In this document: positions 18,240-54,670 of the stretch, piece after piece | Position numbering within the stretch: position 1 is the stretch's first letter | How the letters are laid out: every line of letters begins with the position of its first letter | Origin: Candidatus Undinarchaeales archaeon | Lineage (GTDB): Archaea; SpSt-1190; JASMDC01 | Length of the DNA stretch: 64,000 bases | Assembly (NCBI GenBank): GCA_030753015.1 | Contig: JASMDC010000003.1 | Coordinates: forward strand, 1-64,000 | Direction: 5' to 3' | The notes under the pieces: model-generated | The model's input: the letters and a program-made list of their open reading frames with translations, nothing else | What the model was told of the DNA's origin: nothing | The model's database searches: none | Program-made: the position numbers and the translations under genes

Positions 18240-18244
18240 TAGTC

Positions 18245-24092: not shown

Positions 24093-24324
24093 TGGACCCT
24101 GAGACACTGACCGTTCATTTTTTGAATGTGGCCTGGTACCCACTGAGCGTGGATCCGACCGCATTCCCATCCACAGAGGGGGGCCTACACAAGTGACACT
24201 CTCTTCTCTTAACGGGAACGGCCAGGCCATCCTTGGAGATGATAACGGCCCGAAAGAAAAAATACCTGTCCGCCGGGTTGGAGGCGTGGATGTCAACTCG
24301 TGCACCGAGAATGACGCGTCCAAG

Positions 24325-27300
24325 ATGGATGTCGAGGTGTCGCCGCGCCTGTGTGCGTACTTCACTGCGTTGGAGCGTGATGCACGACAGTTGTACGAGA
24401 TCGCAGAAGAGGCAAGGAAGAAAGGCCTTGATCCTGAGTCACAGGTCAACATTCCTCTGGCCCGGGACGTAGCGGCACGGGTGGAGGGTCTCATCTCGTC
24501 CATCTATCCACAACTGACCGGCTCGGGGCTCGCCGAGGCAATCCGTTTACTGGAGGACGAATTCAGTAAGAACGATGAACGGATTTGTTTTCATGCAGCT
24601 GAACGGGTGGCGCGCGAGGAGTTCTGTAAATTCGAGAGTACTGAACAGGCACTCGATGCCGGCGTCCGTGTGGGTGTGGCATATAACACACAAGGTATCG
24701 TCACAGCGCCCCTTGAGGGCATCGCGCGGGTAAAGGTCAAGAAGCGTATGGATGGCGGCGAGTACGTAGCCATCTACTATGCGGGGCCTATCCGGAGCGC
24801 TGGTGGAACTGCCAACGCGCTCTCCGTGCTCATCACTGATTTCCTACGCTCAAAGTTCGGTTACCAGTCGTACGATCCGCTCGACAATGAAGTGGAGCGG
24901 TTCGTTACCGAGCTCGAGGACTACGATTCAAAGATCACGAACCTCCAGTTCAAGGTGTCGGCCAATGACATCCGGACAATGGTACATCACATCCCCGTCG
25001 AGGTGAGCGGCGACGCCACCGAGAAACTGGAAGTCCTCTCCTACAAGGACCTTGAGCGTGTCGAGACCAATAATATCCGGTCGGGTGTCTGTCTCACTCT
25101 ATCCTGTATCTACGGTAAGGCCTTCAAGCTCCTCAAGCGGATCAAAGGGAACCTATCCGGTTTCGAACTCGAGCATTGGATATTCCTTGAAGAGATGATG
25201 TCTAAGGGAAAGAAAGAAGAGAAGACGTCCGGTTCGAAGGGTGTCGAACCCTCCTACAAGTACATGAGCGAGCTTCCCGGGGGACGTCCGGTCTTCTCGT
25301 ACCCATCTCGAGCGGGCGGGTTCCGCCTCAGATACGGCCGGAGCAGGAATACGGGATTCGCGGCCTGCGGTGTCCATCCGGCCACTATGGTGGTGACGGA
25401 CGAGTTCATCTCCGTTGGTACACAGCTCAAGATAGAGTACCCCGGAAAGGCGACCGTCGCAATGCCAGTGGACGGTATCGAGGGACCGATCGTAAGGACC
25501 AGTGACGGATCCGTAGTCCGTGTAACTTCGATTGAGCAGGCACGCGAAGTGAGGAAGGATATCGACAAGGTGCTCTTCCTAGGGGACCTCTTGATAGGAT
25601 TCGGCGAGTTCGCTACGAACGGAAAGAAGCTCCTACCGGCTGGCTGGTGCGAGGAGTGGTGGGAGGGTCTCGTGCGTGAGAGCAACGAGGAACCGAGCAC
25701 CCCTGGTTCGTTCTCCGAAGCACTCGCGATCTCACAGCGGTTGAAGATCCCTCTCCACCCGCGGCACACACACTTCTACTCCGACCTATCACGGGATCAG
25801 CTGTCCGCACTAGCGCGATGGTTAGGGACAGGGACTATCGAGCGTGTTCCGCGAGATCATGCAGATGGGGGCACTATCATCCATCTTAGACTCAAGCATG
25901 ATGACGCTGGCAAGGATGCCCTTGAGATCGCGTGCCTACCACACTCGGTGACCGATGGTGAAGTGGTCATCGAGGGGGAAGCAGAAGAGCTACTCGTCAC
26001 CTTTGGAATGTTGGATGTAGACCGCATCGATCCATCGCGACTGCTGGGGATCTTGGACGAACTCCGTGATGCCTCGGCCCTTGAGGTCATCAACGCCGTT
26101 TCCCCGGTCATGATCAAACCTTTCGCTCCCGCGTACATTGGAACGAGGATGGGCCGACCCGAGAAAGCAGAGAGACGGATCATGAAGGGATCGCCCAACC
26201 TTCTCTTCCCTGTTGGTCGTGATGATGCGGGGGAGAAGAAGCAGCGTTCGCTCATCAAGGCCGCTCAGCACAAGACCGTGCGTGTCGAGCTAGGAAAACG
26301 CTTCTGCCCGGAGTGCAAGGAGTTCACGTTCATGGCGAACTGTCCGACCTGTGGGGCCCTCACAGAGCAGAGAAGGGTTTGTGTCCGGTGTGGCCAGGTC
26401 ACTAAACTGGACATGCATTGTGAAATACCTACAAAGAGATCGGACTTCTACCATCTTCCGTTCAAGGAGCTCATCGATGCGGCCGCCGGTAACGTAGGCG
26501 AGCGAGTGCCTGCCGAACTGAAGGGCGTGCTCGGGATGAGCTCACGCTCCAAGATACCTGAGCGTATGGAGAAGGGGATACTACGTGCCAAGCACCGCGT
26601 GCTAGTGAACAAGGACGGTACGATCAGGTTCGATGGTACGGACTGTCCCATCAGCCATTTCACGCCCATTGAGATCGGAACAACAGTGGAGCGTCTAAGA
26701 GAGCTCGGGTACGTCGAGGACATCCATGGGAAGACGCTCGAACATGAGAATCAGGTGGTCGAACTTCTAGCTCAGGATATCCTTGTGTCCGACTTTAGGG
26801 ATCCTGACGGTAAAATCGCTTCGGGAGCTGACTACTGTACTCAGATATGCAACTTCGTCGACGATCTCCTCGAGAGGTTCTATGGGATGCCCCGATTCTA
26901 CAATATTTCATGCCGCGAAGACCTCGTAGGACACCTTGTAATCACGCTCGCACCCCACACATCGGCCGCCATCATTGGAAGGATCATCGGATTCACTCCT
27001 GCCAGAGTATACTATACTCATCCTCTGCTTATTGCTGCACGTAGACGGAATGCGGATGGGGATGAGGATTCTATCTCATTGGCGCTCGATGCGCTCCTCA
27101 ACTTCTCACGGTCATTCCTCCCTGATACACAGGGGGCTCGAACCATGGACGCACCTCTCGTGCTCACACTCATACTGAATCCCTCAGAGATTGATGATGA
27201 GGTATGGGATATGGACACGAGCTGGAGGTATAATCCAGCCTTCTACGAGATGACGTACGATTATCCTGAACCGAAGGATGCAAAGAAAGCGCATAATATT

Positions 27301-27819
27301 GAACAGTATGCCGACAGGATCGGTAATAACTCTCAGTACGAGGGGCTTGGATTCAACATAGGGACGACCGATGTTAGCGCTGGACCCACTATTACTGCAT
27401 ACAAATTTCTGGGAAGTATGCTCGAGAAAGTGGATGCACAGCTTGAGCTTGGACGTAAGATACGTGCTGTGAACGTGGACGGAGTTGCTGGTCTAGTGCT
27501 AGGGACACACTTCCTTAGTGATATCAAAGGGAATATTCGTACGTTCACCAGACAAAAGATCCGATGTATCACATGTAATTCCAAGTACCGTCGCGTTCCT
27601 CTGACCGGCGTATGCACAAGGTGTGGGGGTAAGCTAATACTAACTGTCGCTCCAGGAAGTGTCTCAAAGTATATCGCACCTTCAATGAGGATCGCTGAGA
27701 ATTTCAAGATAACTCCGTATCTCAATCAGCAACTTGAGGTTGCATCAAGACGTCTTTTGTCTATGTTCGGAAAAGAGAAACATCAGCAAGTTGGCCTTGA
27801 TACTTTTCTTTCAAAATAA
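24325..27819 (+). CDS. polC: DNA polymerase D large subunit DP2
   Basis: YAGPIRSAGGTA, GGFRLRYGRSRNTG, RMGRPEKA, Zn fingers, RRNADGDED catalytic motif; no intein seen. Start ATG 24325 or GTG 24193. Confidence 0.96.
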   Translation: MDVEVSPRLCAYFTALERDARQLYEIAEEARKKGLDPESQVNIPLARDVAARVEGLISSIYPQLTGSGLAEAIRLLEDEFSKNDERICFHAAERVAREEFCKFESTEQALDAGVRVGVAYNTQGIVTAPLEGIARVKVKKRMDGGEYVAIYYAGPIRSAGGTANALSVLITDFLRSKFGYQSYDPLDNEVERFVTELEDYDSKITNLQFKVSANDIRTMVHHIPVEVSGDATEKLEVLSYKDLERVETNNIRSGVCLTLSCIYGKAFKLLKRIKGNLSGFELEHWIFLEEMMSKGKKEEKTSGSKGVEPSYKYMSELPGGRPVFSYPSRAGGFRLRYGRSRNTGFAACGVHPATMVVTDEFISVGTQLKIEYPGKATVAMPVDGIEGPIVRTSDGSVVRVTSIEQAREVRKDIDKVLFLGDLLIGFGEFATNGKKLLPAGWCEEWWEGLVRESNEEPSTPGSFSEALAISQRLKIPLHPRHTHFYSDLSRDQLSALARWLGTGTIERVPRDHADGGTIIHLRLKHDDAGKDALEIACLPHSVTDGEVVIEGEAEELLVTFGMLDVDRIDPSRLLGILDELRDASALEVINAVSPVMIKPFAPAYIGTRMGRPEKAERRIMKGSPNLLFPVGRDDAGEKKQRSLIKAAQHKTVRVELGKRFCPECKEFTFMANCPTCGALTEQRRVCVRCGQVTKLDMHCEIPTKRSDFYHLPFKELIDAAAGNVGERVPAELKGVLGMSSRSKIPERMEKGILRAKHRVLVNKDGTIRFDGTDCPISHFTPIEIGTTVERLRELGYVEDIHGKTLEHENQVVELLAQDILVSDFRDPDGKIASGADYCTQICNFVDDLLERFYGMPRFYNISCREDLVGHLVITLAPHTSAAIIGRIIGFTPARVYYTHPLLIAARRRNADGDEDSISLALDALLNFSRSFLPDTQGARTMDAPLVLTLILNPSEIDDEVWDMDTSWRYNPAFYEMTYDYPEPKDAKKAHNIEQYADRIGNNSQYEGLGFNIGTTDVSAGPTITAYKFLGSMLEKVDAQLELGRKIRAVNVDGVAGLVLGTHFLSDIKGNIRTFTRQKIRCITCNSKYRRVPLTGVCTRCGGKLILTVAPGSVSKYIAPSMRIAENFKITPYLNQQLEVASRRLLSMFGKEKHQQVGLDTFLSK

Positions 27820-27860: not shown

Positions 27861-27970
27861 TGACATTATAATTTACTGATATAGTTTCTGATTATATATT
27901 ATATTGACCTTATAATATACTGTTATAGTTACTATACTATAATACTATATGACCATCTAATTTACTGGTA
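27861..27970 (+). repeat. Three direct copies of a 21-bp motif at 44-45 bp spacing
   Basis: TGACATTATAATTTACTGATA (27861), TGACCTTATAATATACTGTTA (27905), TGACCATCTAATTTACTGGTA (27950). Confidence 0.85.
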
Positions 27971-28006
27971 AAACTTATCAATCTTAATTACTTCATTTTT
28001 TTCATT

Positions 28007-28459
28007 ATGATTAAAAAGAAACTAGGTAGACGTTTTTCTGATCAAGCATGTACGAACAAGTCATGTAGGAATTTCGCTGTACCAGGACTTGGTAACATAA
28101 TCGGAAATGGCACTTATCAAATCCAAGATGGTATAGTTAGGAAGTTCTTTTGTCGAACATGCAAGAAATCTTTTTGTGATCGAACTAGAACAGCTTTCTA
28201 TGATTTGCGAACTAAGGATAAGATATTCTATGATGCTCTAACACTTATTATCAAAGGCAAGAGCATAAGATCCGTTGCAAATGAGCTCGATACGACACTT
28301 GACACTGTAAGATCTTGGCTCACTCGTGCAGCATCACATCCGGACGATGTGAATTCTACACTTTCAAATCGAACTGGATTTGAGGTCGAGAAGCTCAATG
28401 AACTATGGTCATCAGTACGTGCAAAGCGGTTTTCTGAATGGAAGAGGAGAGATAAATGA
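28007..28459 (+). CDS. Truncated IS1-family (InsA-like) zinc-ribbon + HTH protein, lacking DDE domain
   Basis: C-x4-C...GNIIGNGTY...CRTCKKSF...TAFYDLRT...GKSIRSVA...DTVRSWL.RAA.H. Ends just after LNELWSSV, where IS1 transposases have DELW. Confidence 0.75.
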   Translation: MIKKKLGRRFSDQACTNKSCRNFAVPGLGNIIGNGTYQIQDGIVRKFFCRTCKKSFCDRTRTAFYDLRTKDKIFYDALTLIIKGKSIRSVANELDTTLDTVRSWLTRAASHPDDVNSTLSNRTGFEVEKLNELWSSVRAKRFSEWKRRDK

Positions 28460-28635
28460 ACCGTTAACTATTTTCCTTTCTTTTTAGCGAAAGCAAGACC
28501 AAGCATGAGTTTTGAGAACACTCCCATTTTATATTCACTGTCAGTCAGACAATACCACGATAACCTTGATATAAACGTTCTCATGATAGTAGAGTAGAAT
28601 ATTGTAGGATAATAGAGTAGTATAGTATATAGTAA

Positions 28636-28681
28636 TACCAGTAAATTATAATGTCAATTATATCAGTAAATTAGATGGTCA
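28636..28681 (-). repeat. Two inverted copies of the 21-bp motif
   Basis: TACCAGTAAATTATAATGTCA (28636-28656) and TATCAGTAAATTAGATGGTCA (28661-28681). Confidence 0.85.
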
Positions 28682-28741: not shown

Positions 28742-29629
28742 CTAGATTGCTAGTACTCTGCCCGACCTTATCGAGTCGAGTTCTTCCCTCTCATGATCAA
28801 TCTCTTTCACTGATGATTTCTCAGAGTCATCGGTGTGAGCGAACAGGTTCTCTAGATCGAGCTGGAAACTATACTGATTTATTGAGAGGTTGAAACGAAC
28901 ACCGTTCTTCTTCATGTATTTCTCAGCAAAATACGGTTTACTATGATATCGGCTTGTCTCTTCAATCTCTCCCTTGCGTGAGCCCCACCACACTTTCTTG
29001 AAATCCCCTTCCTTGAGATTTACATCAACGTAAGAGAGTATGAGACTATCAGTAAGATGGATTTCTTCCCGCATATAATTCGCTATCTTGACCTCTGACC
29101 ATCCTTCACCTTTCCTCAACTTCATTGCAAGGGCATCGATAGTCTGGTCGATTTTTCTCTCATGAATAACTTTTCCAATCCCTGAACGTTCACCTTTGTC
29201 GAGCATACCGTACGCAACGTCAAGGGCTACCAGCTCCTCCATCCACTCCGATCCATCACGAAGAGCTGCATGAGTGGCTTCATGAGCAAGTATGTAGTCT
29301 ACGATAGCAGCATTCCCTGCATGCTTTGTGTTCACGTAGATTTCAGTTTCGCTCGGTCCGAACCATCCAGGTAGCCGGGTAAGACCGCCAATCCCGTCAT
29401 CGAGCTCAGCGTACCAGAGGTTGTCGGTTGAATAAGTGTAATGGACATCGAAATGTCGGTTGACCTTACCGTAGATCTGCTCACCTTCACGTCTCAGGTC
29501 ATATGTGGAATTGATGCCGTCAGCACATTCAGGTGCGTTGATATACTCACTGATGTGATATTTGAGGTCCTTGACGATCTCATCCGTCTCGATAAAGTCA
29601 ACACCGATGGAGTCGATGAGCTCGTCCAT
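28742..29629 (-). CDS. Hypothetical protein with HExxH zinc-metalloprotease motif
   Basis: EIYVN...ILAHEATHAAL...E; TTTATAAAA box upstream on the minus strand. Confidence 0.65.
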   Translation of the reverse strand: MDELIDSIGVDFIETDEIVKDLKYHISEYINAPECADGINSTYDLRREGEQIYGKVNRHFDVHYTYSTDNLWYAELDDGIGGLTRLPGWFGPSETEIYVNTKHAGNAAIVDYILAHEATHAALRDGSEWMEELVALDVAYGMLDKGERSGIGKVIHERKIDQTIDALAMKLRKGEGWSEVKIANYMREEIHLTDSLILSYVDVNLKEGDFKKVWWGSRKGEIEETSRYHSKPYFAEKYMKKNGVRFNLSINQYSFQLDLENLFAHTDDSEKSSVKEIDHEREELDSIRSGRVLAI

Positions 29630-30914: not shown

Positions 30915-31939
30915 CGTTGATACCCCCCGATTCGCGAGTAATAGTCCGTGACCGATCCGCTGAGCGATTCCTGCCACGCACCATCAATCTCGTCCTGATG
31001 CTGTTCATCCCACCCTTCCCCGATAACGGTCATGAAGATGCTCTCAAGGCTGAACTCCTTGGCGGCGAAGGCATTGAGCGAGAGCCCGTTGTCGGCAAGG
31101 AGCTTGGGCAGTACGAATCGCAGTCTCTCGATGTCAGCTGCCATTATGTTCACCTTATGCTTCTTGTCCAGCCAAACCTTCTCTGCCGACGCCTCTTGGG
31201 AGAGAAGGCTGAAGGCCTGCTGGTTGTCCGACGCATCTAGGATGAAGTGGTTTCCCGCAAACTCCTGCTTCAGGCCATCGATCGAGTTCTCTACCACGGT
31301 CCGCCCGTTGTTGATGATGGTCACTTCATCTGAAACCTTCTCGATCTCGGAGAGGATGTGCGATGATACGAGAACGGTAAGTTCTCTCTCGGTCACAAGT
31401 TCCCGCAGCTTCTTGAGCAGTCCGTACCTGGCGACAGGGTCTAGATTGGACGTTGGCTCGTCGAGGATGAGTATATCGGGTTCATGGATGAGGGCCTGTA
31501 CGAGAGAAAGCTTCTGGCTCATACCGGCTGAGAAGCCCTGGACGCTCCGGTCCTTGGCGTGCCCCAGGTCGAAGGTCTCCAACAGCTCCTCGGCCCGTGA
31601 CCTAGCTCGCCCACCGTCGACTCCACAGATGCGTCCCATGAGCTCGAGATAATCGAGAGCGTTCATATCATAGAACCGGGGGTGCTCGGGAGAATAGCCG
31701 ATGAGGGAACGGGCCCTCACGCTTCCGGCAGGTTGTCCCTTGATGGACGCGGAGCCCTGAGTGGGGCGTATCGCGCCGATGAGCATCTTGATCGTGGTGG
31801 TCTTTCCAGCACCGTTGAGCCCGAGGAATCCGTGGATCGTGCCCTCCTCGACACGGAGGTTCAGGCCGTCCACGGCCCTGAAACGACGCTTCCAGAAACC
31901 GAAATCCTTGGTGAGCCCCTCGGTCTCGATGGCGTGCAT
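30911..31939 (-). CDS. ABC transporter ATP-binding protein
   Basis: GLNGAGKTT, FSAGM, ILDEPT, SSH; C-terminal SLESIF extension. Confidence 0.93.
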   Translation of the reverse strand: MHAIETEGLTKDFGFWKRRFRAVDGLNLRVEEGTIHGFLGLNGAGKTTTIKMLIGAIRPTQGSASIKGQPAGSVRARSLIGYSPEHPRFYDMNALDYLELMGRICGVDGGRARSRAEELLETFDLGHAKDRSVQGFSAGMSQKLSLVQALIHEPDILILDEPTSNLDPVARYGLLKKLRELVTERELTVLVSSHILSEIEKVSDEVTIINNGRTVVENSIDGLKQEFAGNHFILDASDNQQAFSLLSQEASAEKVWLDKKHKVNIMAADIERLRFVLPKLLADNGLSLNAFAAKEFSLESIFMTVIGEGWDEQHQDEIDGAWQESLSGSVTDYYSRIGGYQR

Positions 31940-34900
31940 CAGGCAGCACCCCTAACGTACAGATAGGTGCGTCGCCCCAAGTAGCCTACAATGGAGAGCA
32001 CGATGATGCCGTTGATGAGCCAGTGGGCTAGCACCTTGCGCTTCACTATGACCGAAACGTGGGAGTAGGTGCTCCCACCAAAACCATCGGTCGTCCTGAG
32101 ACTCACCTGGTGGTTTCCGGAGGGGAGATCCAGGAAGGTGCTGGACGAACTGGTCCGGACCACAACGTTCCCGTCCACCAGCACCGAGGTGATGACGTTG
32201 GACTGTTGCTGCCAGGTCAGGTCGAATCCCGCATGGACCTCGTCCCCGTCCGAAGGAGAGGAGATCGGTACATCCCAGTCCGCTCCCACCACGTACACGT
32301 CGCCAGCAGTCGATGTAACTATGATGTCCCGTCCATCGCCCATGTTGAACACGCCCGATCCGCGGATACCTAGTTCGCGTACGATACGACCCGTGGCGAC
32401 GTCGAGAACATAGAGCGTCGGAGACGGTCGCCCGCCCTCGCGCCCCACAAGCGCAGTGAAGGCAAGCTCGCGACGCCCGTCGCCTGTGATGTCGTTGATC
32501 GTGGAAACGGCGACCGCGGGCTGGAACTGGTCGACGTCCTTACGTCCCTTGAATAGATGCACCTTATCGATCTCCTGGCCGGAGACGAGGCTGTAGAACG
32601 TCACGGTGATATCCCTCTGCCACATGGCGGTGGCGACGACGGCCAGTTCGTTCACACCGTCACCGTCCATGTCCTTGACCACCGTGGCGGGCTCGATGTT
32701 ATCGATGCGGAGGGTATCGAGCATCCAGGTCTCCATGGGATGCGGGTACCTCCACCCATCCATGTTGGCACCGGACTGCTTCACGACCAATTCGGGCCCC
32801 TGCGGGCCCCACCGCTTGAACTGCATTAGGTCGTCGGCCCCGTCACCGTCGAGGTCACGGACCCAGCGCCCGCCCCCTGAACCATCATCATCCATGGTGA
32901 GCACGACCTTCCCGAACCGACTGTCAAGGACAATTAGCTGCTCGGGCATGTCCCTGCGGTGTACGCGCACACCGATGTCCGGACGTCCGTCCCCCGTGGC
33001 ATCGTCCACCAGACGGATGTTCTCCTTGTTGAAGTTAGCCTCCTCAGGACTCCAGCGCCACAACGGCCGCCAGCTTCCTGAGCGCTCGCTCTTGAGCACC
33101 AGCACTTCCTTCCAAGAGGCTAGTAAGAGCTCGTCAATACCATCGTTGTTGAAATCGCCCAATGATCGGAGGACGTTCCGGTCATTTTCGAGGAACGACC
33201 ACTCGAGCTTTTTCACGCGGTCTTCCTCCTCCTTACCGTCCTTGAAAGGATCCTGGAAGGACCATGCTTGGTTGGTCCTTGTGAGGAAGGGTTTCCCGGT
33301 CAGTCCGTCGAGGACGTACACCTCGCGCCAGCCGCTCACGAGCACGTCGTCCACATCGTCCCCGTTGAGGTCTGACAGTGTATCGACGGCCACAACCCGC
33401 TTGCAGATCCGCAGGTTCTGCTCCCGCTCCTTGACCTCCTGACGCATGCTCCTTGCCCGTTCCTCGGCATTCCTGAGCTGGTTACGCTCCTCCTCCTCCT
33501 CAGGAGTGCGCTCCCGCTTCCAGTCGAGACGCTTCAGCCGCTCCGAATCGACCCCCAGCCTCTGGTCGATGATCGACGGATCCTTGAAGATATCGTTCCA
33601 TGTCCCATAGTGGGTTCCATCTGCGACAGGAGTGCGCCAGATGTCAGTTCCCGTGGCGCCGGAGATGAGCACGATGCGGGTCCGATCACCGTACTGGTCC
33701 CCCCAATCCCAGTCGCCTGGAGCTTGGACGAACGCAAGGATATCACGCTTCCCGTCCCCGTCCATATCGTCCGTCAGACGCACCTGCTGGAGCGTCAGAC
33801 CCGAGAGCACGTCCTTGATGGGCACCCGATACTCCCAAGCTTGCTCGTGTGTCGCACCGTCCATGACGAAAAGAAGGCGCGAGGAGCCCTGGTCGTTATT
33901 GTCCTGAGGATTCGTACGCTCGGCGGAGAGCGCTAGGAGGTCCGGATTCTCGTCACCTACAAGGTCGGCTGTGAGGTAGGTAAGCCCCGCATAGCGAGGA
34001 TAGCTCCATTGCACCCGTCCGCGCATGTCTAGCATCACCAGATCGGTGCGGTCGGATGCGAGGACCACACCATCGCCGAATGGCAGCACCCACAGCGATG
34101 ACTTGTCAAGGGCGAGCGTCATGTTCGGCTTATAGGGTGCTAGCTCGGTCATGTTGGCAGCCCACAGACGGCTCATACCTGATGTGGTAGGCATCAGCAG
34201 GGTCTCGCCAATAACAGGGAGGCGCTCGACCTGTTGGAGCCCCGCATCGTGCCGGCTCCACAGGGTGTTCCCCCTGCGCGAGGAAAGGGCCACTAACAGG
34301 CGTTTCTTCCCCATGTATCCCTGGCCGTTCTGTTGCTGCTGCTCGCCCCCACCAGGCCAGGTGGCGGCCACGATATCCTCCTGTCCGTCCCCGTCGATGT
34401 CGGGGATGATTGCGATGCGGAGGTTGAAGTAGTTGTCCATGTCAGGGGTGGTGGGGGATAGAGATTGTCCACGCATCCCCCCTTTGTAGTAGCGTGATAG
34501 CATGAGGGCGTCGTACTCGAGCACGGTGGTGTTCCATTCAACTCGCCCCGCTCGACCATTGATGAGGAGCACATTACCATCCTCGGTAGATACTACAAGG
34601 GAGTCACCAAGGGGGACGATGTCCCAAACGCTCCGCGTGACCGTTCCCATTTCGCGGTCCGATCGAGGATCCCGGAGCACCAGGGGTTCAGCGGCACGGA
34701 TCGACCAGAGCTCCTTTCCTGATCGCGCGTCGATGAGATGGACACGTCCATCCTGGCATCCCGCCGCGATGTCCGGCCAGCCATCACCAGATAGATCTTG
34801 CGTGGCGATGATCCTGAACACGTCGTTCGCTGCATCGAACCGCCAAGACAGTTCGCCCGTGATCCCGTTCAACAGGAGCACAGCTGATCCAGAGGCAGCT

Positions 34901-35382
34901 ACGAGGTCCAGAGCACCATCGCCGGTGATATCACCTATGGTTGCCAGATCCCACGTGATGGTCTCGGCATCGGTCCATCGGAGCTGGGGATCGTAGGCCT
35001 CCACGGTTGGTGTATAGCTCCAGTGGACAGCACCCAGTCCGTCAAGCGCAACGATGTTCGGGAACACCTGGTCCCGTGTCGAGTAATAGAATAGGTCGCC
35101 TGCACGTGCGATGTCCGTAACGGCCGAAGAAGCGGCTAGGAACGCGACGCGCTCTCCTGATGCGTCGATGATGTGGACGCCGCTATCGGTCCCAATGGCG
35201 ATGCGGTCGTCCCACGTCTGTAACGTGGTTATGCTCCCTGATAGCCCGCTCGAGATGTGGGCAACAATGTCCTCGCCCGCGGTCACGATGGGGATGGCGA
35301 GCATGATGGTTACGAGCGCGATAGTCGCCCAAAGGGACCCGTGCGTCCAACTCTCGCTCACGTCACGTGAGTGCCGCTGCAC
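31939..35382 (-). CDS. Large membrane-anchored beta-propeller protein (PQQ-like / FG-GAP Ca-binding repeats)
   Basis: Signal peptide; many D-x-[DNT]-GDG-x-x-D loops alternating with G.TG...W blades; C-terminal Ig-like segment and TM. Start may be slightly downstream. Confidence 0.82.
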   Translation of the reverse strand: MQRHSRDVSESWTHGSLWATIALVTIMLAIPIVTAGEDIVAHISSGLSGSITTLQTWDDRIAIGTDSGVHIIDASGERVAFLAASSAVTDIARAGDLFYYSTRDQVFPNIVALDGLGAVHWSYTPTVEAYDPQLRWTDAETITWDLATIGDITGDGALDLVAASGSAVLLLNGITGELSWRFDAANDVFRIIATQDLSGDGWPDIAAGCQDGRVHLIDARSGKELWSIRAAEPLVLRDPRSDREMGTVTRSVWDIVPLGDSLVVSTEDGNVLLINGRAGRVEWNTTVLEYDALMLSRYYKGGMRGQSLSPTTPDMDNYFNLRIAIIPDIDGDGQEDIVAATWPGGGEQQQQNGQGYMGKKRLLVALSSRRGNTLWSRHDAGLQQVERLPVIGETLLMPTTSGMSRLWAANMTELAPYKPNMTLALDKSSLWVLPFGDGVVLASDRTDLVMLDMRGRVQWSYPRYAGLTYLTADLVGDENPDLLALSAERTNPQDNNDQGSSRLLFVMDGATHEQAWEYRVPIKDVLSGLTLQQVRLTDDMDGDGKRDILAFVQAPGDWDWGDQYGDRTRIVLISGATGTDIWRTPVADGTHYGTWNDIFKDPSIIDQRLGVDSERLKRLDWKRERTPEEEEERNQLRNAEERARSMRQEVKEREQNLRICKRVVAVDTLSDLNGDDVDDVLVSGWREVYVLDGLTGKPFLTRTNQAWSFQDPFKDGKEEEDRVKKLEWSFLENDRNVLRSLGDFNNDGIDELLLASWKEVLVLKSERSGSWRPLWRWSPEEANFNKENIRLVDDATGDGRPDIGVRVHRRDMPEQLIVLDSRFGKVVLTMDDDGSGGGRWVRDLDGDGADDLMQFKRWGPQGPELVVKQSGANMDGWRYPHPMETWMLDTLRIDNIEPATVVKDMDGDGVNELAVVATAMWQRDITVTFYSLVSGQEIDKVHLFKGRKDVDQFQPAVAVSTINDITGDGRRELAFTALVGREGGRPSPTLYVLDVATGRIVRELGIRGSGVFNMGDGRDIIVTSTAGDVYVVGADWDVPISSPSDGDEVHAGFDLTWQQQSNVITSVLVDGNVVVRTSSSSTFLDLPSGNHQVSLRTTDGFGGSTYSHVSVIVKRKVLAHWLINGIIVLSIVGYLGRRTYLYVRGAA

Positions 35383-35467: not shown

Positions 35468-35487
35468 CTCCAGTGGAAATAAGGGGG
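35468..35487 (+). promoter_or_regulatory. Isolated ORB-like box
   Basis: CTCCAGTGGAAATAAGGGGG in the divergent intergenic region. Confidence 0.55.
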
Positions 35488-35548
35488 TGTGACCCTGTTG
35501 CTCAAGATATACTAATCCATTTAACAGAGCACCGCTTTCCTCTTTCCG

Positions 35549-36724
35549 ATGCACACTGAACGGCGGGTCCAGACGCGCCCGCGCTTCTCCTTTTCAGCAG
35601 GGGAGCCCGTCACAGCGTCCGCAGCGCTGGGCTTGAAGGGCAAGCACCCGTCCGGAGCGCATCGTACAAAACACCTGGCAGCAACGATGTTCATAGGAGG
35701 ACGTTACCGTAAGGTGCTTGTCACCCTCTCACCGCACGCCCTGGTTATAGAGCGATGTGACCGGCAGGTCCGCCTCGTTGCGTGCGCTCCCCACGCCATC
35801 GAGCAGGGAGGTGAGGACACTCTGGACCATGATATCTGGACCGGCGAGGAGGCCATCGAACTGCTCCGGTCCGGCGCAGTGGACCGCTGTGTGATATCCC
35901 TTCACAACCGCGGTCTGCTCGACTTCAATCGCTTTCCCTCACAACCCTTCGTCCAGTACGGCCGCACGGTCCGGAATCCACCCTATCGCCAGCCTAATCC
36001 CTACCACGGTTCACTTGACGCGAAGGTTGTGCTCGACCTTCATGGTTTCAGGTCCGGGACCCATAGTCGCGGCATCATCCTCGGCATCGGGAGGGTCGAC
36101 GAACTGACAATGAGAGACAGCAGGTTCGTGGGGGCTGTAAGGAGCAGCGCATCCTTTGGAGCCAACCTCCTTATCAGGATAGCTCGCGAGGCTCTCCGGC
36201 GGAGCCCTGGGATGACGCTGGAGCTGCACGCTTCCCTTGACCTGGTACGGCTCCCCTGTACCGCGGGCAACGTCCCTCGCGTCGTTCTCACCGAAGAGCG
36301 CTTGGTAGAGATGGGATTCGTGAGCGGAGAGCTTGTCGCTCTCGGACTGATCCATGACCGCAGCGGTCGGGTCGCAGGGGTGGAAATATGTCGTGAGGCC
36401 GCGGACACCGACGACGAACTCGTAGTCGAGTCAGGTGATCGTGAACGAGTGGAGCTCCCACGAAAGCTCAAGGTGACGGAGCGGATCGACTTGAGCGGTC
36501 GGCACGTCTTCACGTTCACCGGGCGAGGATTCCGTATTCGTGATGGGAGCGCATTCCGTCGCTATCTCCCGGGATTGCGTAACTACACCTTTCGCTATCT
36601 AGCAAAGAGGGGTGTTGCTTGCGTCCAGGTCGAGCAGACCAAGGGAGTGCGAGAGAGTTTCGCTCAACGGCTATCTGGAGCAGGGTGCGTTTTCCGCGTT
36701 CCAGAGGGTCAACGCTGGATGTAG
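35549..36724 (+). CDS. Hypothetical cytoplasmic protein (possible AbrB/SymE-like segments)
   Basis: 391-aa ORF with TTTAA box upstream; no clear family. Confidence 0.6.
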   Translation: MHTERRVQTRPRFSFSAGEPVTASAALGLKGKHPSGAHRTKHLAATMFIGGRYRKVLVTLSPHALVIERCDRQVRLVACAPHAIEQGGEDTLDHDIWTGEEAIELLRSGAVDRCVISLHNRGLLDFNRFPSQPFVQYGRTVRNPPYRQPNPYHGSLDAKVVLDLHGFRSGTHSRGIILGIGRVDELTMRDSRFVGAVRSSASFGANLLIRIAREALRRSPGMTLELHASLDLVRLPCTAGNVPRVVLTEERLVEMGFVSGELVALGLIHDRSGRVAGVEICREAADTDDELVVESGDRERVELPRKLKVTERIDLSGRHVFTFTGRGFRIRDGSAFRRYLPGLRNYTFRYLAKRGVACVQVEQTKGVRESFAQRLSGAGCVFRVPEGQRWM

Positions 36725-50098: not shown

Positions 50099-50863
50099 GT
50101 GTACGACATGCTGTTCGATGACGGGTACAGGGTGGATGCCCTGGTGACCGATTTCGACAGCACGCTCACCGTCAATAACACGACACCCGGTGTTCTGGAG
50201 ATCATCTACCGACATGCAGAGGAACCTGACACGACCCGCGAGGAGATGGGCGAGCTAGTTGGCGCATACTTCGCAGAAAGGCGGGAGGCCATCGAGGGCG
50301 GAGGGAACATGGAAGAGATGCTCGAACGCTGGAGCCGGGTCGAGCGCAAGTACTCGGCCATCATAGCATCCTACTTCACGGGCGTCACACGGGAAGAGAT
50401 GAAAGAGGAGGGGTATAGCGTAGAGCTCCGCGAGCACGCGGGGCAGGCGGTGGAACATCTTAGAGAAGCCGGCGTGTCCGTTGCTGTCGATACGAACAAC
50501 TGGTCCTCTTCACTGGTAACTGCAGCACTTGAGGATCGCGTGTCCGTGGACGACGTCTACGCGAACACCCTTGTGTACGGGGACGACGACGCATGCACGG
50601 GCGAGATGATTTTCGACAACGTCGATCCCCTGGCGAAGCGCGATGCGTTGCTCGATTACAAGCAGAAGAGCGGTGCACGACAGGTTGCCTATGTCGGTGA
50701 CGGCCTCAACGACCTTGCCTGCATGGCGGCAGCGGACATCGCTTTCGCCATCAAGCCATCGGACGAGCTCTTGGACGCCATTCAAGACTATGGTCTTGAG
50801 GACCAGGTCAGGGTAGTCGAGTCCTGGGATGAGATCGAGTTAACTTTGCGCACCGACAAGTGA
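50099..50863 (+). CDS. HAD-IB family phosphatase (phosphoserine-phosphatase-like)
   Basis: DFDSTL motif I, YAN.L, K, YVGDGLND motif IV. Start 50099 or 50108. Confidence 0.87.
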   Translation: MYDMLFDDGYRVDALVTDFDSTLTVNNTTPGVLEIIYRHAEEPDTTREEMGELVGAYFAERREAIEGGGNMEEMLERWSRVERKYSAIIASYFTGVTREEMKEEGYSVELREHAGQAVEHLREAGVSVAVDTNNWSSSLVTAALEDRVSVDDVYANTLVYGDDDACTGEMIFDNVDPLAKRDALLDYKQKSGARQVAYVGDGLNDLACMAAADIAFAIKPSDELLDAIQDYGLEDQVRVVESWDEIELTLRTDK

Positions 50864-50922
50864 TTGCCCTGAAGCGGGCCGTATCCACATATAATGAAAT
50901 ATTGACATGGATGGGGCAATTA

Positions 50923-50974
50923 TACCAGTAAATTAGGGGGTCAGTACATCGGGTGACCGTCTAATTTACTGATA
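50923..50974. repeat. Back-to-back inverted pair of the 21-bp motif
   Basis: TACCAGTAAATTAGGGGGTCA (50923-50943), 10-bp spacer, TGACCGTCTAATTTACTGATA (50954-50974). Confidence 0.85.
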
Positions 50975-51045
50975 TTAGCGCCGCTTCCCTTTTACCATCT
51001 CATCCGCCCTCCCCCGGAGAAATCCTTAAAAAAAATCGTTGACCG

Positions 51046-51174
51046 ATGATGACCGTGGAGTCATACGCCCATATCGACTTCATCAAGGACTTCGATAGCT
51101 ACTTTGCTACCGATGGGATTGAACTCAACGAGAACCTCAACGACCAGTGGGCGAGCTGGATGATCTACTTCTAA
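51046..51174 (+). CDS. Putative 42-aa acidic/aromatic small protein
   Basis: MMTVESYAHIDFIKDFDSYFATDGIELNENLNDQWASWMIYF; BRE/TATA-like GAGAAATCCTTAAAA ~20 nt upstream; genome-typical codons. Confidence 0.5.
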   Translation: MMTVESYAHIDFIKDFDSYFATDGIELNENLNDQWASWMIYF

Positions 51175-51273
51175 GGTCCGCGAAAGCGCCTCCTTGCACG
51201 TATTCACCCTGCGAAATGGAGTGCTGGCCAACAAACTATATAAGGAGCCATGGGCACATCAATCTACAGGGAC

Positions 51274-51489
51274 ATGGCGACGCCATTGTCACGTCTGATG
51301 CGGGCGAACCGCGGGGAGGAGGAGCAATCCCTCCTGCTGGTAATCATCGTGGCAGTGATGGTTTTCGCCGTGCTCTGGCTCGCCATCGCAAAGTCGGGCC
51401 GAGCGGTCGCCCTGGTGTTCGCAGGTTTCTTCAAGATGATCTGGAGCACCATCAAGGGGATGACCGGGATGGATTACCTGTTCAGGTGA
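51274..51489 (+). CDS. Small prepilin-like protein (class III signal peptide)
   Basis: RLMRANRG|EEEQ then hydrophobic helix; TATATAA at ~51237. Confidence 0.7.
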   Translation: MATPLSRLMRANRGEEEQSLLLVIIVAVMVFAVLWLAIAKSGRAVALVFAGFFKMIWSTIKGMTGMDYLFR

Positions 51490-51494
51490 AGGGC

Positions 51495-51689
51495 ATGGGA
51501 CGGCTCACCGATCTTATTCGCAGTCGGCGCGGCGCCATGGGCGAAGCCATCGAGATCAACTTCTGGACCATCGTCGCTGTGCTCGTTGTGGCCGTCATCG
51601 TGTTCACGCTCTACAATTTTGCTCGACAGGCCCAGCCATCCTTCGTTCAATGGATAGCGGACATAATGGACATGTCCATGGGTGAGTGA
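51495..51689 (+). CDS. Small prepilin-like protein
   Basis: IRSRRG|AMGEAIE then hydrophobic helix. Confidence 0.72.
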   Translation: MGRLTDLIRSRRGAMGEAIEINFWTIVAVLVVAVIVFTLYNFARQAQPSFVQWIADIMDMSMGE

Positions 51690-51690
51690 T

Positions 51691-51945
51691 ATGGGTCTGC
51701 TCGCGAATCGACGGGGTGTCAAGGCCAACGTGTACGACTTCATGATCTTCGTAATAATCTTCCTGCTGGTGCTCATGCTGGTGTTCACCCTTGCTGGCTG
51801 GCGGATGGTCGAGATAATTCACAAACCTGCTGAGCAGTGGGGGGACGATACGGCCGGTAAGGCACGGGATAATATGGCCTGGAACGGGGTGAAGAAATCC
51901 ACAGGATTCATCACGCTCCCGATGGGCGGCCTCTCCCTCACGTGA
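51691..51945 (+). CDS. Small prepilin-like protein
   Basis: ANRRG|VKANVYD then hydrophobic helix; GGTGA SD. Confidence 0.72.
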   Translation: MGLLANRRGVKANVYDFMIFVIIFLLVLMLVFTLAGWRMVEIIHKPAEQWGDDTAGKARDNMAWNGVKKSTGFITLPMGGLSLT

Positions 51946-52034
51946 AATTGGTAGGTAGGTACATCAAATTACTACTACCCAATGACAACTTATATAAAAC
52001 TGTACGTATATAGTAAGTAATAGAGGGAGCACTC

Positions 52035-52247
52035 ATGCTACGCACCCTAATCAGGTCGAAACGTGGTGAGTTGGGCGGACCCACCCGCATTACTCTCAAG
52101 AAGATCCTCCCCGCGCTCATCATGATGGTGCTCTTCCTGCTCGTAGGCTTCGCCTTGCTCCGTTCACGCGGCTATCTGGACTTCGAGACCCTTACGGGCA
52201 CGTTCTCCAAGACCGTGGAATCGGGGATGGATATAGGAGGGATGTAG
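52035..52247 (+). CDS. Small prepilin-like protein
   Basis: IRSKRG|ELG then hydrophobic helix; strong TTATATAAAA promoter at ~51990. Confidence 0.72.
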   Translation: MLRTLIRSKRGELGGPTRITLKKILPALIMMVLFLLVGFALLRSRGYLDFETLTGTFSKTVESGMDIGGM

Positions 52248-52251
52248 CACG

Positions 52252-52443
52252 ATGGACGTACGCCACCTGCACCCATTGAAGAAACTGCGCCGCCTGGGAC
52301 GCGACCAGCGCGGCATTACCATGTCACGAGACATGCTCATCGGGACCGTGATCGCCCTGCTCATGCTGGCGTTCCTGCTCATGGTCATCGGTGACCGGAT
52401 CGTGCCCATGGCGAACTCGGCGCTCTCGTGGGGACCAAAATGA
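52252..52443 (+). CDS. Small prepilin-like protein
   Basis: RDQRG|ITMS then hydrophobic helix. Confidence 0.72.
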   Translation: MDVRHLHPLKKLRRLGRDQRGITMSRDMLIGTVIALLMLAFLLMVIGDRIVPMANSALSWGPK

Positions 52444-52874
52444 ACACACGTCGCGGGGTCGTTGGTATATTCTACCTCGTCCTTGCGGCAGTGATAACAC
52501 TGGCAGTCTCGATCCTCATCATGCAGTCAATGTACAGCAGGGCCGCCAATGCAGGGAAGAAACCGACCGATCAGGGCCTTCAGGGCAGGATCGTCGCTCT
52601 CTGCACTCAGCTCACCGGCCCGGACACCGTCGATGCAACAGAGACCATTGATCTCCCCGCCAAGGTGGACAGCCGCGAGGTCGCACGCCTTGTGATTGTG
52701 TACTGCTTCCCGGGGGTCTCTCCCGGCGATATCACGGTAGAGACGGACTGTTCGCGCGAAGCTCCAGGACACGTTCTCCACTGGTGCGGGCCTACCGAGC
52801 TGCTTGGTACAAAGCGCTTTACAGCAGAGATGTCCCGTGACACGGAGTTCGACGTCCGATTGAGGGTGAGCTGA
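52440..52874 (+). CDS. Prepilin-like protein with globular Cys-containing domain
   Basis: MNTRRG|VVG then hydrophobic helix; ATGA overlap. Confidence 0.75.
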   Translation: MNTRRGVVGIFYLVLAAVITLAVSILIMQSMYSRAANAGKKPTDQGLQGRIVALCTQLTGPDTVDATETIDLPAKVDSREVARLVIVYCFPGVSPGDITVETDCSREAPGHVLHWCGPTELLGTKRFTAEMSRDTEFDVRLRVS

Positions 52875-53468
52875 ATGATAGCCGTCGACTCGTTCCGCAA
52901 GGTCGTGGGATTCGTCGTCATTCTAGGTCTCATCGTTGCCCTCATATATGGCGTTGCTCACGAGAGGATATCGCGCGTGGGGAACAAGTTCGTTGACATG
53001 TTCGCGTGCCCCCCCCTCGCAACCTGCGGCACTGGATCAAAGAAGGAGTGCCCCATCTTAGCTAGCCTCGAAATGCCGATCCTCACTAAAGGCGACTCGC
53101 TCATGGCCGGCAAGTGCCGACTTCGCATATGCAACCGGAAGTCCGTTGGGGGTGAGCCCAACCGCGACTATCGGGTGGAGGTCTGCCGGAGCGCCGTGGC
53201 CAATCCCGGTAAGAAGGGGGTGGCCGAACAGGAGTGCGTCCTCCTCACCGATCCTAAAGGTAAGGTGAAGCAGTTCAACCTCGCAAAGGAAGGGGTGACC
53301 GAGTATGAGTGTGCCAATGTCTGGCGCCCTGCCGATCTCGACCTCACCCGGTCTGAGCGCGAGGTATCGATAGACCTGACAATCAACATCAAGAACAGCA
53401 CTGGGCTGTTCAAGGTGGTGGACACTAAATGGAACGTACGCTACCAGCATCCGCTCGACGAAGCATAG
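52875..53468 (+). CDS. N-terminally anchored Cys-rich exported protein
   Basis: TM near N-terminus, paired Cys; no clear class III cleavage motif. Confidence 0.7.
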   Translation: MIAVDSFRKVVGFVVILGLIVALIYGVAHERISRVGNKFVDMFACPPLATCGTGSKKECPILASLEMPILTKGDSLMAGKCRLRICNRKSVGGEPNRDYRVEVCRSAVANPGKKGVAEQECVLLTDPKGKVKQFNLAKEGVTEYECANVWRPADLDLTRSEREVSIDLTINIKNSTGLFKVVDTKWNVRYQHPLDEA

Positions 53469-53659
53469 GGCAGCTGATCCGCGGTGAACGCGGCGGGATG
53501 GCCGACGCCCCAATCTATTCTTTAGCAACGCTTATATTGGTGGCTGTGTTAATCTACCTCGTATACACATGGTTATCAAGCAAACCAGAGATGATCACAA
53601 ATGTCTTCGGAAGGACCCTAGACATGCTTACAGGAGCCTTTGAGGGGTTTTTAGGATGA
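53429..53659 (+). CDS. Small prepilin-like protein (start uncertain)
   Basis: IRGERG|GMADAP then hydrophobic helix; stop overlaps next ATG. Confidence 0.6.
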   Translation: MERTLPASARRSIGQLIRGERGGMADAPIYSLATLILVAVLIYLVYTWLSSKPEMITNVFGRTLDMLTGAFEGFLG

Positions 53660-54117
53660 ATAAGAAAGGATCTATGGACACGTCGGTCGCAGCCCTTATA
53701 GCCATCGTACTTGGTGTAGGCGTTATTGCCTTCGGTGTCTATGGGCTCAACAAGGGCCAACGGACCTCGGACAATGTGGGCGTCATGGGAGATGCGGCTC
53801 GAAGCCGCCTCGATCCCCGGACGCTGGGTAAGTGCGCTGACTGGCACGATGATGGATACCCGCTCGGTATCGACGTCCTTCAGTACACCTATGGCTTCCC
53901 CACTATGTTTACTGGACAGACTATTTCTGGATGCAAGAACCTCCCTGACAAGATGGCAAAAGCCAGGGAAGAAGGCATCCCGAGCTTGAAGTTCAGTGAC
54001 AGTGATGTGAAGCGATGCGCTACCTACTGTGCAAAGATCGCACAGGAACGGGACAAGTGCATGTCCCAGCGCGATCCGCAGGCATGCATGGCCGAGGCAT
54101 TCGCAAAGGTAAGATAA
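53656..54117 (+). CDS. Prepilin-like Cys-rich protein
   Basis: MNKKG|SMD then hydrophobic helix; CxxW and CxxxC-x9-C. Confidence 0.78.
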   Translation: MNKKGSMDTSVAALIAIVLGVGVIAFGVYGLNKGQRTSDNVGVMGDAARSRLDPRTLGKCADWHDDGYPLGIDVLQYTYGFPTMFTGQTISGCKNLPDKMAKAREEGIPSLKFSDSDVKRCATYCAKIAQERDKCMSQRDPQACMAEAFAKVR

Positions 54118-54136
54118 CCTGATACGGGGAACTACC

Positions 54137-54670
54137 ATGAGGAGACGGGGTTCGTTAAGTCAGTGGTTGGGCGGGCGCGCCAGCATGAGCGTGAGAGTTC
54201 GTCGCGCCACCATCAATCTGAGCCTTGGCATGCTTGTAGCAATGGTGTTCGTCGTGCTCCTCGTCGCAATGGGTGCGCTCTCAGCCAGTCGTACCAAGAA
54301 GGATGTGCAGAAAAGGTCCAAGGAATTCACGGTCCAGGTCCGCTCTCAGCTCCTCTCTGCCAATCCTGTTGCGAAGTCCTGCTCCTTGTGGTTCTCCCAG
54401 GGACTTGGTATGCCCACGGCCGTTAACTACTACAAGGTCCCCAGTTCGTCCAAGTATGCCACCTGGGGTTGCTGCGACGACCTGGATGGGCTCGAACATG
54501 ACAAGCTCAACGCCCAAAAGGTGAACAAGTGCCTCAAATCGTGTGGTCAGGCACTCTCACTGTTGGAGCGTTGTAGCCAGGACTGGGACATCATGGACGG
54601 AGGCAAGTACGAGGATGCCCAGACCTGTTACAAGTCACGGTTCGAAAAGGACGTGAGGTGTGTCTCATGA
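54137..54670 (+). CDS. Prepilin-like Cys-rich protein
   Basis: VRRA|TINL then hydrophobic helix; CxxW and CxxxC-x9-C. Confidence 0.75.
   Translation: MRRRGSLSQWLGGRASMSVRVRRATINLSLGMLVAMVFVVLLVAMGALSASRTKKDVQKRSKEFTVQVRSQLLSANPVAKSCSLWFSQGLGMPTAVNYYKVPSSSKYATWGCCDDLDGLEHDKLNAQKVNKCLKSCGQALSLLERCSQDWDIMDGGKYEDAQTCYKSRFEKDVRCVS

Follow-up and report, generated by a model that had tools for sequence, protein, structure and literature searches.

A putatively domesticated IS1 InsA-like protein and a conserved set of sites derived from IS1-type inverted repeats in a Candidatus Undinarchaeales archaeon

Prokaryotic insertion sequences are usually viewed as mutagens or as portable promoters. In the IS1 element of Escherichia coli, the InsA protein is described as a repressor of the IS1 promoter that overlaps the left inverted repeat (IRL) and as a competitor of the transposase at both ends, and its zinc finger (ZF) and helix-turn-helix (HTH) motifs are both required for binding (PMC12428005). 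TnpB-derived TldR repressors are reported to target flagellin, which is a surface-filament gene (bioRxiv 10.1101/2023.11.30.569447). The co-option of mobile-element regulators into host networks has been documented mainly for phage Xre-type repressors and antitoxins; the section on co-opted transcription factors in PMC8987985 deals with Xre/Ner, antitoxin, and RHH (ribbon-helix-helix) regulators, and the term IS1 occurs 0 times in its main text. A literature search of titles and abstract openings found no paper on an IS1/InsA-derived regulator in archaea. Here we describe a stretch of 64,000 nucleotides from a Candidatus Undinarchaeales archaeon (contig JASMDC010000003.1, here C51:1-64000), hereafter the window, which carries an inverted pair of short sites at 50926-50971 and, about 22 kb away, further copies of the same site on both sides of an open reading frame (ORF) of 150 codons, ORF150, that is related to InsA. 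Judged from sequence, the most fitting description is that of a domesticated IS1 InsA-like protein accompanied by conserved sites that derive from inverted repeats.

On the + strand positions 50923-50943 read TACCAGTAAATTAGGGGGTCA, the spacer at 50944-50953 reads GTACATCGGG, and positions 50954-50974 read TGACCGTCTAATTTACTGATA. The pair consists of two inverted 18-bp cores, CAGTAAATTA-N4-GTCA, at 50926-50943 (+) and 50954-50971 (-) with 10 bp between them, and the consensus of both copies is CAGTA[A/G]ATTA-N4-GTCA. The two cores are identical at all 14 specified positions and differ at two of the four N positions (GGGG vs GACG). The left arm, CAGTAAATTAGGGGGTCA, has its outer (GTCA) end rightward and the right arm, which reads TGACCGTCTAATTTACTG on the + strand, has its inner end towards the downstream promoter region; the outer ends therefore face each other, and there is no gene between them. 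A repeat search recovered the same site relations and also found a weaker palindrome of 50 nt (72%) surrounding the pair. The initial annotation had claimed that a 21-bp site recurs about 22 kb away as this inverted pair, and this was confirmed, the nearest other copy being 22,262 bp away.

The further cores in the window are three direct copies at 27861-27878, 27905-27922, and 27950-27967 (- strand, spacing 44 and 45 bp) and two copies in the opposite orientation at 28639-28656 and 28664-28681 (+ strand, spacing 25 bp). At up to 2 mismatches the window has 7 matches as against 0.13 expected, and none of 100 shuffles reached 7. In the whole assembly (3.85 Mb in 117 contigs, 98.9% complete, contamination given as 5%) there were 18 matches at this threshold as against 1 for a reversed control pattern, and the numbers at 0, 1, 2, and 3 mismatches were 7, 7, 4, and 51. 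In a weight-matrix scan 13 sites scored 31.7-43.1 bits, scores that are favoured by construction because the matrix was trained on these sites, and the maximum for the reversed matrix was 24.5; the next-best scores were 26.1 (C62:105444, upstream of an Lrp-like ORF), 23.6 (one end of a decayed IS1-family copy on contig C29, described below), and 19.9. Outside the window a further inverted pair, again offset by 28 bp, is found at C75:15931 (+) and C75:15959 (-), and there are four single sites, C84:131766, C95:45128, C95:122479, and C42:112. The motif scan for which the initial annotation had called thus returned a discrete and non-random set of 13 sites at 8 loci. The possibility that the single sites are ends of a multi-copy IS body was rejected because the sequence that is shared around each of them stops within 24-37 bp. 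A scan of metagenomes for the pair pattern found one contig, and as this is 99.9% identical over the overlap to C75 of the present genome it represents no additional lineage. DNA of the organism occurs in 11 studies.

By its sequence the motif is an IS1-type terminal repeat with its CAGT side inward and its GTCA side outward. A search for related loci recovered 13 loci, and all four elements that were examined (L047, L050, L051, and L052, from other archaea or metagenome-assembled genomes) could be delimited at 1.16-1.28 kb. Each has an ORFA that is homologous to ORF150 and ends ..VELDELWTFVKKK, followed by a frameshifted ORFB, and all four ORFBs match PF03400 (DDE_Tnp_IS1) at 29.4-33 bits (cut-off 24.1). 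The ends of these elements read ..atCA[AG]yyA.T[AT]A-N3-GGGTCAc[ty]Acc and those of IS1A of E. coli K-12 (NC_000913) read ..ATCAGTAAGTTGGCAGCATCACC and ..ATCAATAAGTTGGAGTCATTACC. It is because the ends of elements that code for PF03400 proteins and the ends of E. coli IS1A share one design, with the inner half of the site common to all four elements and IS1A, that the motif is assigned as it is. What none of the 13 sites has is the last ~5 nt, the cleavage tip ..C[TC]ACC (GGT.. at the start of an element) that is common to real elements. The 10-bp spacer of the pair corresponds in length to the ~5+5 nt tips of two abutted IS1-type ends, the tip length being that of real elements. A decayed IS1-family copy in the same genome, at C29:162593-163448, still has the tip GGTCAGCACC at both ends; its ORFA-like frame, 53% identical to ORF150, is followed by an A8 run and then by a DDE-like frame that is broken. 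No equivalent of the 2.6 kb around this copy is present in the sister genome described below, and inspection by eye revealed no obvious target-site duplication.

ORF150 (28007-28459, + strand) codes for a four-Cys Zn-ribbon and HTH protein of 150 aa that is homologous to the N-terminal DNA-binding (InsA) part of IS1-family transposases. It matches NCBIfam NF033558 (transpos_IS1) over residues 45-145 with E 1.2e-8 and 35.2 bits. A profile built from 12 close homologues found 2102 representatives at E<=1e-3, and of 16 representatives that were scanned five (P0046, P0091, P0130, P0095, and P0100) have PF03400 above the cut-off and 2 more have it below; these long relatives were found by a profile search without word index, and a homologue search that was restricted to longer proteins scored none. 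Across 53 sequences C20, C49, and C52 are invariant and C15 is present in at least 90%. The AF2 model (pLDDT 91, pTM 0.76) has a beta Zn-ribbon (strands 31-57) and helices from residue 71, so that an N-terminal four-Cys zinc finger is followed by an HTH region for which the HTH-type matches are weak. Foldseek found no match to the model in the PDB at E<=0.001, and the comparison of residues 65-129 with the HTH domains of Tn3 resolvase, TrpR, GerE, and Tc3 (VIA) gave generic matches with Z 5.5-6.9, all <8, a range that supports only the claim of a common arrangement.

ORF150 lies between the left array, whose outer TGAC ends are leftward and whose inner ends are towards the gene, and the right array, whose outer GTCA ends are rightward, and thus 5 of the 13 sites flank it in the orientation of IS ends. 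Inverted copies with their outer ends outward around a gene are found only here, where the gene has no DDE domain; the pair at 50926-50971, with its outer ends inward, bounds no transposase gene. ORF150 stops 15 residues past the point that corresponds to the first catalytic Asp, where each of the 4 aligned orthologues has Asn, and the position of the lysine/A-run is RAK/RAN, with NELWSSVRAKR instead of DELWTFVKKK. There is no ORFB downstream at the locus and hence no DDE frame that could be reached through an A-run frameshift. From these features of the translation ORF150 is no longer a transposase. PF03400 was not found anywhere in the assembly by a search to which the control genomes, E. 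coli and M. acetivorans, respond, and this absence is a weak point because repeats may be unassembled. In other archaea this Zn-ribbon/HTH module also occurs in fusions, with a MarR/TrmB-type winged helix in proteins of 291-300 aa (L021:1465-2367 in genome G038, and P0070) and with Xre-type HTH domains in proteins of ~500 aa (P0029, P0032, and P0054). These fusions may be independent recruitments of the IS1 DNA-binding module.

Conservation was examined in a search of 41 genomes, which include the present genome (G000) and its same-genus sister (G001). Only the sister has a close ORF150 relative (86% identity); the match in G038 is 36% identical and is the fusion to a MarR-like domain. The sister orthologue lies at the same place after the PolD genes with the same 3+2 sites at the same spacings, and the locus is therefore fixed in both species. 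The 7 other site loci of the sister each map to a site locus of the present genome, and 12 of the 13 sites are at orthologous places. Exact matches to the motif number 12 in the present genome, 11 in the sister, and 0 in the other 39 genomes; as these 39 are also without a close ORF150 relative, motif and ORF150 co-occur. Between the two genomes no difference was found at the 13 fixed positions (0/156), while there were 17/60 differences at position 6 and the N4 positions (Fisher p 5e-11), and the identity of the 40-bp flanks was 342/480 on the inner side and 295/480 on the outer side (61-71%). The remark of the initial annotation that the N4 positions vary while the flanks are fixed therefore holds both within the genome and across species, and in this comparison the pattern behaves like that of a constrained protein-binding site. 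The synonymous divergence (dS) between ORF150 and its orthologue is 0.86 and the ratio of nonsynonymous to synonymous divergence (dN/dS) is 0.11; for the genes at the 51-kb locus the synonymous divergence is 0.19-0.44. The C75 pair is present in both species with the letters of its 10-bp spacer changed and the length unchanged. At the pair in the window, the left arm is present in the sister as CAGTAAATTAGAGGGTCA, with one change in N4, and the right arm is deleted there, removed by a 36-column gap after GTGACC in the alignment.

Some further differences between the two genomes were noted around the sites. Between ORF150 and the right sites the sister has a 316-aa transglutaminase-like gene on the - strand (G001:C31:3726-4676), which lies downstream of the right-array sites by 86 nt. 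This gene is deleted in the present genome, where only its promoter-proximal stub (..cttgatataaacg..cactgtcag) is left at 28460-28640 (vs G001:C31:3726-4762). An ORF at 28742-29629 (-) belongs to the A+T-rich stretch beside ORF150 and codes for 295 aa with a HEATH (HExxH-like) motif; it has no Pfam match, is 86% identical in the sister, and has a dN/dS of 0.09. A degenerate site beside a tRNA gene (G000:C29:76951-76968 / G001:C4:116384-116401), in which 3 of the 13 fixed positions differ, is decaying in both species and further in the present genome.

There are 7 cases in which a site near a gene points with its inner end at the start codon, over a distance of 39-95 nt. The distances are 39 nt for ORF150, 86 nt for the transglutaminase-like gene of the sister, 74 nt for a 42-codon ORF after the 50.9-kb pair, 69 nt for an arrestin-N-like ORF, 95 nt for a GDPD gene, 77 nt for a LarC-like gene, and 59 nt for an M20 peptidase gene. 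A/T boxes that are conserved in both species lie 30-54 bp past the site and, at ORF150, directly beside it, where the last copy of the left array stops 39 nt before the ATG and abuts the conserved TTATCAATC box (27974-27983). The left arm of the 50926-50971 pair faces the 3' end of a HAD gene and is outside this promoter geometry. Beyond the window the sites adjoin the GDPD, arrestin-N-like, LarC-like, and M20 peptidase genes, a C/D-small-RNA-like element, and convergent 3' ends. The C/D-like element is a highly conserved stretch at G000:C84:131826-131894 (L012:1561-1629) with a C-box-like ATGATG and a D-box-like CTGA, and it begins ~40 bp after a conserved TTATAAT box. An Rfam search of 3 site loci gave a single sub-threshold match, to sR3 of the C/D-box family (18.9 bits, E 0.22, gathering score 41). 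On the inner side of C84:131766 there is also a stretch of 2.9 kb found only in the present genome (G000:C84:128848-131765, covered in part by L012), which includes a PMT_2-type glycosyltransferase ORF and is replaced by 59 bp in the sister; the site bounds this indel exactly.

At the 50.9-kb pair the conserved A/T box, TTAAAAAAAA, is at 51026-51035 (+), 54 bp past the right arm; the block GGAGAAATCCTTAAAAA..AAATCGTTGACCGATGAT around it is nearly identical in the sister, where the left site is 46 bp from the same box. The box is presumably a promoter element. It stops 10 nt before the ATG at 51046, and since the usual distance from box to transcript start is 25-30 nt, either the assignment of the box or the start of the ORF is uncertain. 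The 42-codon ORF (51046-51174, +) is conserved in the sister with a dN/dS of 0.32 and has no family match. It is followed by a run of small ORFs at 51250-54670 (+), most of which have an N-terminal (K/R)(K/R)G and then a hydrophobic helix; an N-terminus with RG and a hydrophobic stretch is first seen in the ORF that starts at 51250. The distances given in the initial annotation from the pair (arm end 50971) to the TATA box, the small ORF, and the first prepilin-like gene are therefore about right. Three ORFs of the array were tested and had a dN/dS of 0.09-0.16, and by this measure these and the 42-codon ORF are real genes. In the array ORFs that were scanned, 16 per library, Pfam gave no family at E<=0.01 and NCBIfam gave no pilin family, with only weak unrelated matches at E 0.006-0.07, and no assembly ATPase was seen with Pfam in 51-62 kb. 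The pilin-like label of the array is accordingly weak, as it rests on the N-terminal pattern. Two of the array proteins have paralogues on C66, C63, and C30, and the weight-matrix scan showed no site near these.

The explanation that we propose starts from the InsA protein of E. coli IS1, by analogy with which ORF150 would bind the sites, regulate its own gene, and act upstream of other promoters. The 18-24 bp site would be the terminal inverted repeat of an archaeal IS1-family element, retained for binding and not for transposition, and ORF150 would be the remnant of the transposase of that element, with the Zn-ribbon and HTH retained and the catalytic domain gone. ORF150 would bind all 13 sites, and that it binds them is in our judgement probable. 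Its own gene would be autoregulated, as in IS1, through the three sites that end beside the likely promoter box. At the other loci a site or an inverted pair lies 30-54 bp upstream of an A/T box and 59-95 nt before a start codon, from where bound ORF150 could favour or impede the formation of the archaeal transcription start complex. For a transcript that would begin near 51040-51060 and run into the small, membrane-anchored ORFs of the array, the pair at 50926-50971 would serve as an upstream operator; regulation of the promoter there, whether positive or negative, may be expected or doubted with equal reason. For the explanation as a whole, namely a domesticated InsA-like protein that autoregulates and acts through operators derived from inverted repeats upstream of several promoters, the case is about evenly balanced.

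Several points weigh against this explanation. The score of ORF150 against NF033558 is under the 100-bit equivalog cut-off, and its Pfam matches are weak generic HTH ones. The A/T boxes were identified by eye. Two of the sites do not conform to the geometry, since C42:112 lies between convergent 3' ends and C84:131766 has its outer end facing the nearest conserved box, 15 bp away. The genes adjoining the 8 loci share no theme. The right arm of the 50926-50971 pair is absent from the sister, and so the pair as such is not required there. Conservation was compared in two related species only and thus rests on a single divergence. Finally, contigs cannot show transcript starts, and among the contigs of 4 runs over 50300-52300 those from RNA cover only 50355-50688 and 50775-50925. 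The claim of the initial annotation that an IS1-derived protein regulates a surface-appendage cluster survives in part. Its link to an IS1 protein is borne out by the NF033558 match, by PF03400 in the full-length relatives, and by the matching element ends; the link of the sites to an appendage cluster is weak, as the array is at 1 of 8 loci with heterogeneous genes, has no pilin family, and has lost the right arm in the sister.

If ORF150 is not the protein that binds the sites, another one might, either a host transcription factor or Orc1/Cdc6, in which case the ORF150 cluster would be a second origin-like region. The motif does share CCAGT.GA with the canonical origin box TCCAGTGGAAA, and the main cluster, with its 3+2 inverted arrangement flanking DNA of 19-29% G+C, is 7 kb from cdc6 and just past the PolD genes. 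Orc1, however, has its own canonical mini-ORB inverted pair upstream of cdc6 (20794 + and 21022 -), and the identity of the motif with the ends of IS1-family elements from unrelated archaea accounts for its sequence, and for its position around an InsA-like gene, with no need of replication; we therefore consider another binder unlikely. It may instead be asked whether anything binds the sites at all, as they could be inert relics, that is, solo ends and two abutted ends that remain from old IS1-family insertions. The motif is after all that of an IS end, and C29:162593-163448 holds a decayed copy whose ends are of this type; the outer-to-outer pair resembles a junction at which two IS ends abut, the sister has lost one of the arms, and one site is decaying beside a tRNA gene. 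Inert relics would not be expected to show 0/156 differences at fixed positions against 17/60 at variable ones when the 40-bp flanks are 61-71% identical and synonymous divergence is 0.19-0.86, nor a C75 spacer that has changed its letters and retained its length of 10 bp, and there is no IS body or shared sequence beside the solo sites. That the sites are relics of this kind is thus also unlikely.

The initial annotation had further suggested that the sites loop or recombine the block between 28 and 51 kb. They would then be points of recombination or synapsis, and inversion, excision, or looping of the 23-kb block (27.9-50.9 kb) would switch the giant surface-protein genes or the array. The sites at 27861-27967 and 50926, and those at 28639-28681 and 50954, are indeed oriented like the opposite ends of a single element, very large surface-type ORFs are present in the block, and the 2.9-kb indel on C84 is bounded exactly by a site. 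Recombination of the block was not supported, because no recombinase or DDE_Tnp_IS1 domain was found in the genome, ORF150 is without the catalytic part, 13 of 13 sites are without the terminal ACC tip that real elements and the C29 copy retain, and at either end of the block the sites have orthologous flanks in the sister. In addition, DNA contigs of 2 runs bridge the pair (X13, 50754-51414, and X15, 50376-51015) with no joints or differences, and the contigs of 4 runs showed no joints, indels, or other letters over 50300-52300 apart from loose ends at 50720/50756 in 2 DNA runs; these are short pieces of 37 nt with 7 other letters and are therefore probably from another organism. As contigs drop rare variants this evidence is weak, yet with the rest it leaves recombination or synapsis at the sites very improbable. 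Lastly, ORF150 might be retained mainly as an inhibitor of incoming IS1-family elements, with the chromosomal sites as by-products or decoys. In E. coli, InsA is described as outcompeting the transposase at both ends and blocking transposition (PMC12428005), and a search of this assembly, which is 98.9% complete, gave no DDE domain of the IS1 type although the family is widespread in other archaea. The purifying selection on dispersed sites beside promoters is left unexplained by such a role, and the absence of IS1 copies is weak evidence because repeats are often missing from assemblies; we regard a role mainly as inhibitor as very unlikely.

The setting of the locus is as follows. In the window the genes for Cdc6/Orc1 (21063-22262) and for the PolD small subunit (22266-24092) and large subunit (24193-27819), all assigned with Pfam, are followed by the A+T-rich stretch, by an ABC transporter, and by very large FG-GAP/beta-propeller and unassigned ORFs; farther on there is an AIR-synthase-related gene and then the HAD hydrolase gene that ends at 50863. 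We considered the 28-51 kb block as a foreign island and rejected this, as the A+T-rich stretch is limited to ~27.7-29.3 kb. Directly upstream of cdc6 there is an inverted pair of canonical origin-box cores ~230 bp apart, TGCAGTGGAAA at 20794-20804 (+) and TCCAGTGGAAA at 21022-21032 (-), and this region is likely to be the replication origin, followed by cdc6 and the genes for the two PolD subunits. The origin thus has its own sites, which are different from the IS1-like sites: the latter gave no match to the origin core (T)TCCAGTGGAAA at <=1 mismatch, and canonical cores were found at 20794, 21022, and 35469. The core at 35469 is part of a full origin-box-like sequence with G-string, CTCCAGTGGAAATAAGGGGGTGTG (35468-35491), 14 kb from cdc6 and between the divergent starts of a 1147-aa FG-GAP ORF (31939-35382, -) and a 391-aa ORF (35549-36724, +), and it may be a regulatory site bound by Orc1. 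Upstream of the origin, the sequence at 20084-20479 matches a repeat on many contigs, often at their ends (C28, C29, C32, C37, C52, C67, C82, C87, C95, C117, and others). The assembly is broken by this high-copy element, and just before it there is an ORF (18187-19899) for a DDE_Tnp_1_6/DUF772 transposase. The sister genome is 3.6 Mb in size, and 15 other genomes of the same phylum are 0.6-1.2 Mb.

Both halves of an IS1-type pair of protein and end appear to have been retained by selection after transposition was lost. It is possible, though somewhat less than evenly supported, that a marine archaeon has in this way turned an IS1 element into a small regulatory system, with a selected InsA-like gene and tip-less ends that serve as operators at 8 loci. 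If this is the case, then it would be a prokaryotic, protein-only counterpart of those eukaryotic systems in which a factor and its binding sites come from one transposon, and the MarR/TrmB and Xre fusions in other archaea would mean that the module has been recruited repeatedly. If ORF150 binds, it would also offer a simple model of the way in which an archaeal regulon is seeded by a transposon, and a defined 18-bp operator together with a binder of 150 residues from an uncultured lineage. The set of 13 sites is clean, small, and testable by a binding assay.

Compared with E. coli IS1, the ORF150 locus has the same plan of a gene for a Zn-finger and HTH protein flanked by inverted copies of the ends of its element, with the innermost left site abutting the promoter region of the gene, with ATCAGTAA.TT.G in the inner half of the site common to the IS1A end, and with a match of ORF150 to the IS1 transposase model. 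It differs in that an insB/DDE frame is absent, Asn replaces the first catalytic Asp, and the A-run has gone; in that the ends are multiplied to 3 left and 2 right; in that the locus is at the same place in two species, with 8 further conserved sites at 7 other loci that have no element body; and in that the host is an archaeon with a TATA/BRE-type promoter system. The four archaeal IS1 elements (L047, L050, L051, and L052) have an ORFA of the same family, 40-54% identical to ORF150, and ends of the design ..CA..A.T.A-N-GGGTCA, but they alone have an ORFB with PF03400 in an element of 1.16-1.28 kb, a single repeat per end, and the tip C[TC]ACC. The arrangement is also like that of REP/RAYT systems, in which a single-copy domesticated transposase gene of the IS200/IS605 type is flanked by inverted short repeats, further copies of which are scattered through intergenic DNA both singly and in inverted pairs. 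RAYT is however a catalytically active HUH enzyme and REPs form hairpins and number tens to hundreds, whereas here there are 13 double-strand IS1-type ends and no catalytic domain.

The pair itself resembles the junctions of IS circles and tandem dimers, which have been described for the IS3, IS30, IS21, and IS256 families and in which two ends lie outer-to-outer a few base pairs apart (PMC3299598). Unlike such junctions it has no element body on either side, and at C75 the arrangement is stable at orthologous places. FHY3/FAR1 and TldR, transcription factors that come from transposases and have binding sites of transposon origin, are alike in that a transposon protein has lost catalysis, is under purifying selection, and controls host genes. 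FHY3/FAR1 are eukaryotic, Mutator-derived proteins of plants. TldR can be regarded as the nearest recent bacterial analogue, but it is RNA-guided and comes from the TnpB of IS200/IS605-type elements, while ORF150 would be protein-only. The InsA-like module described here would read copies of its own former ends.

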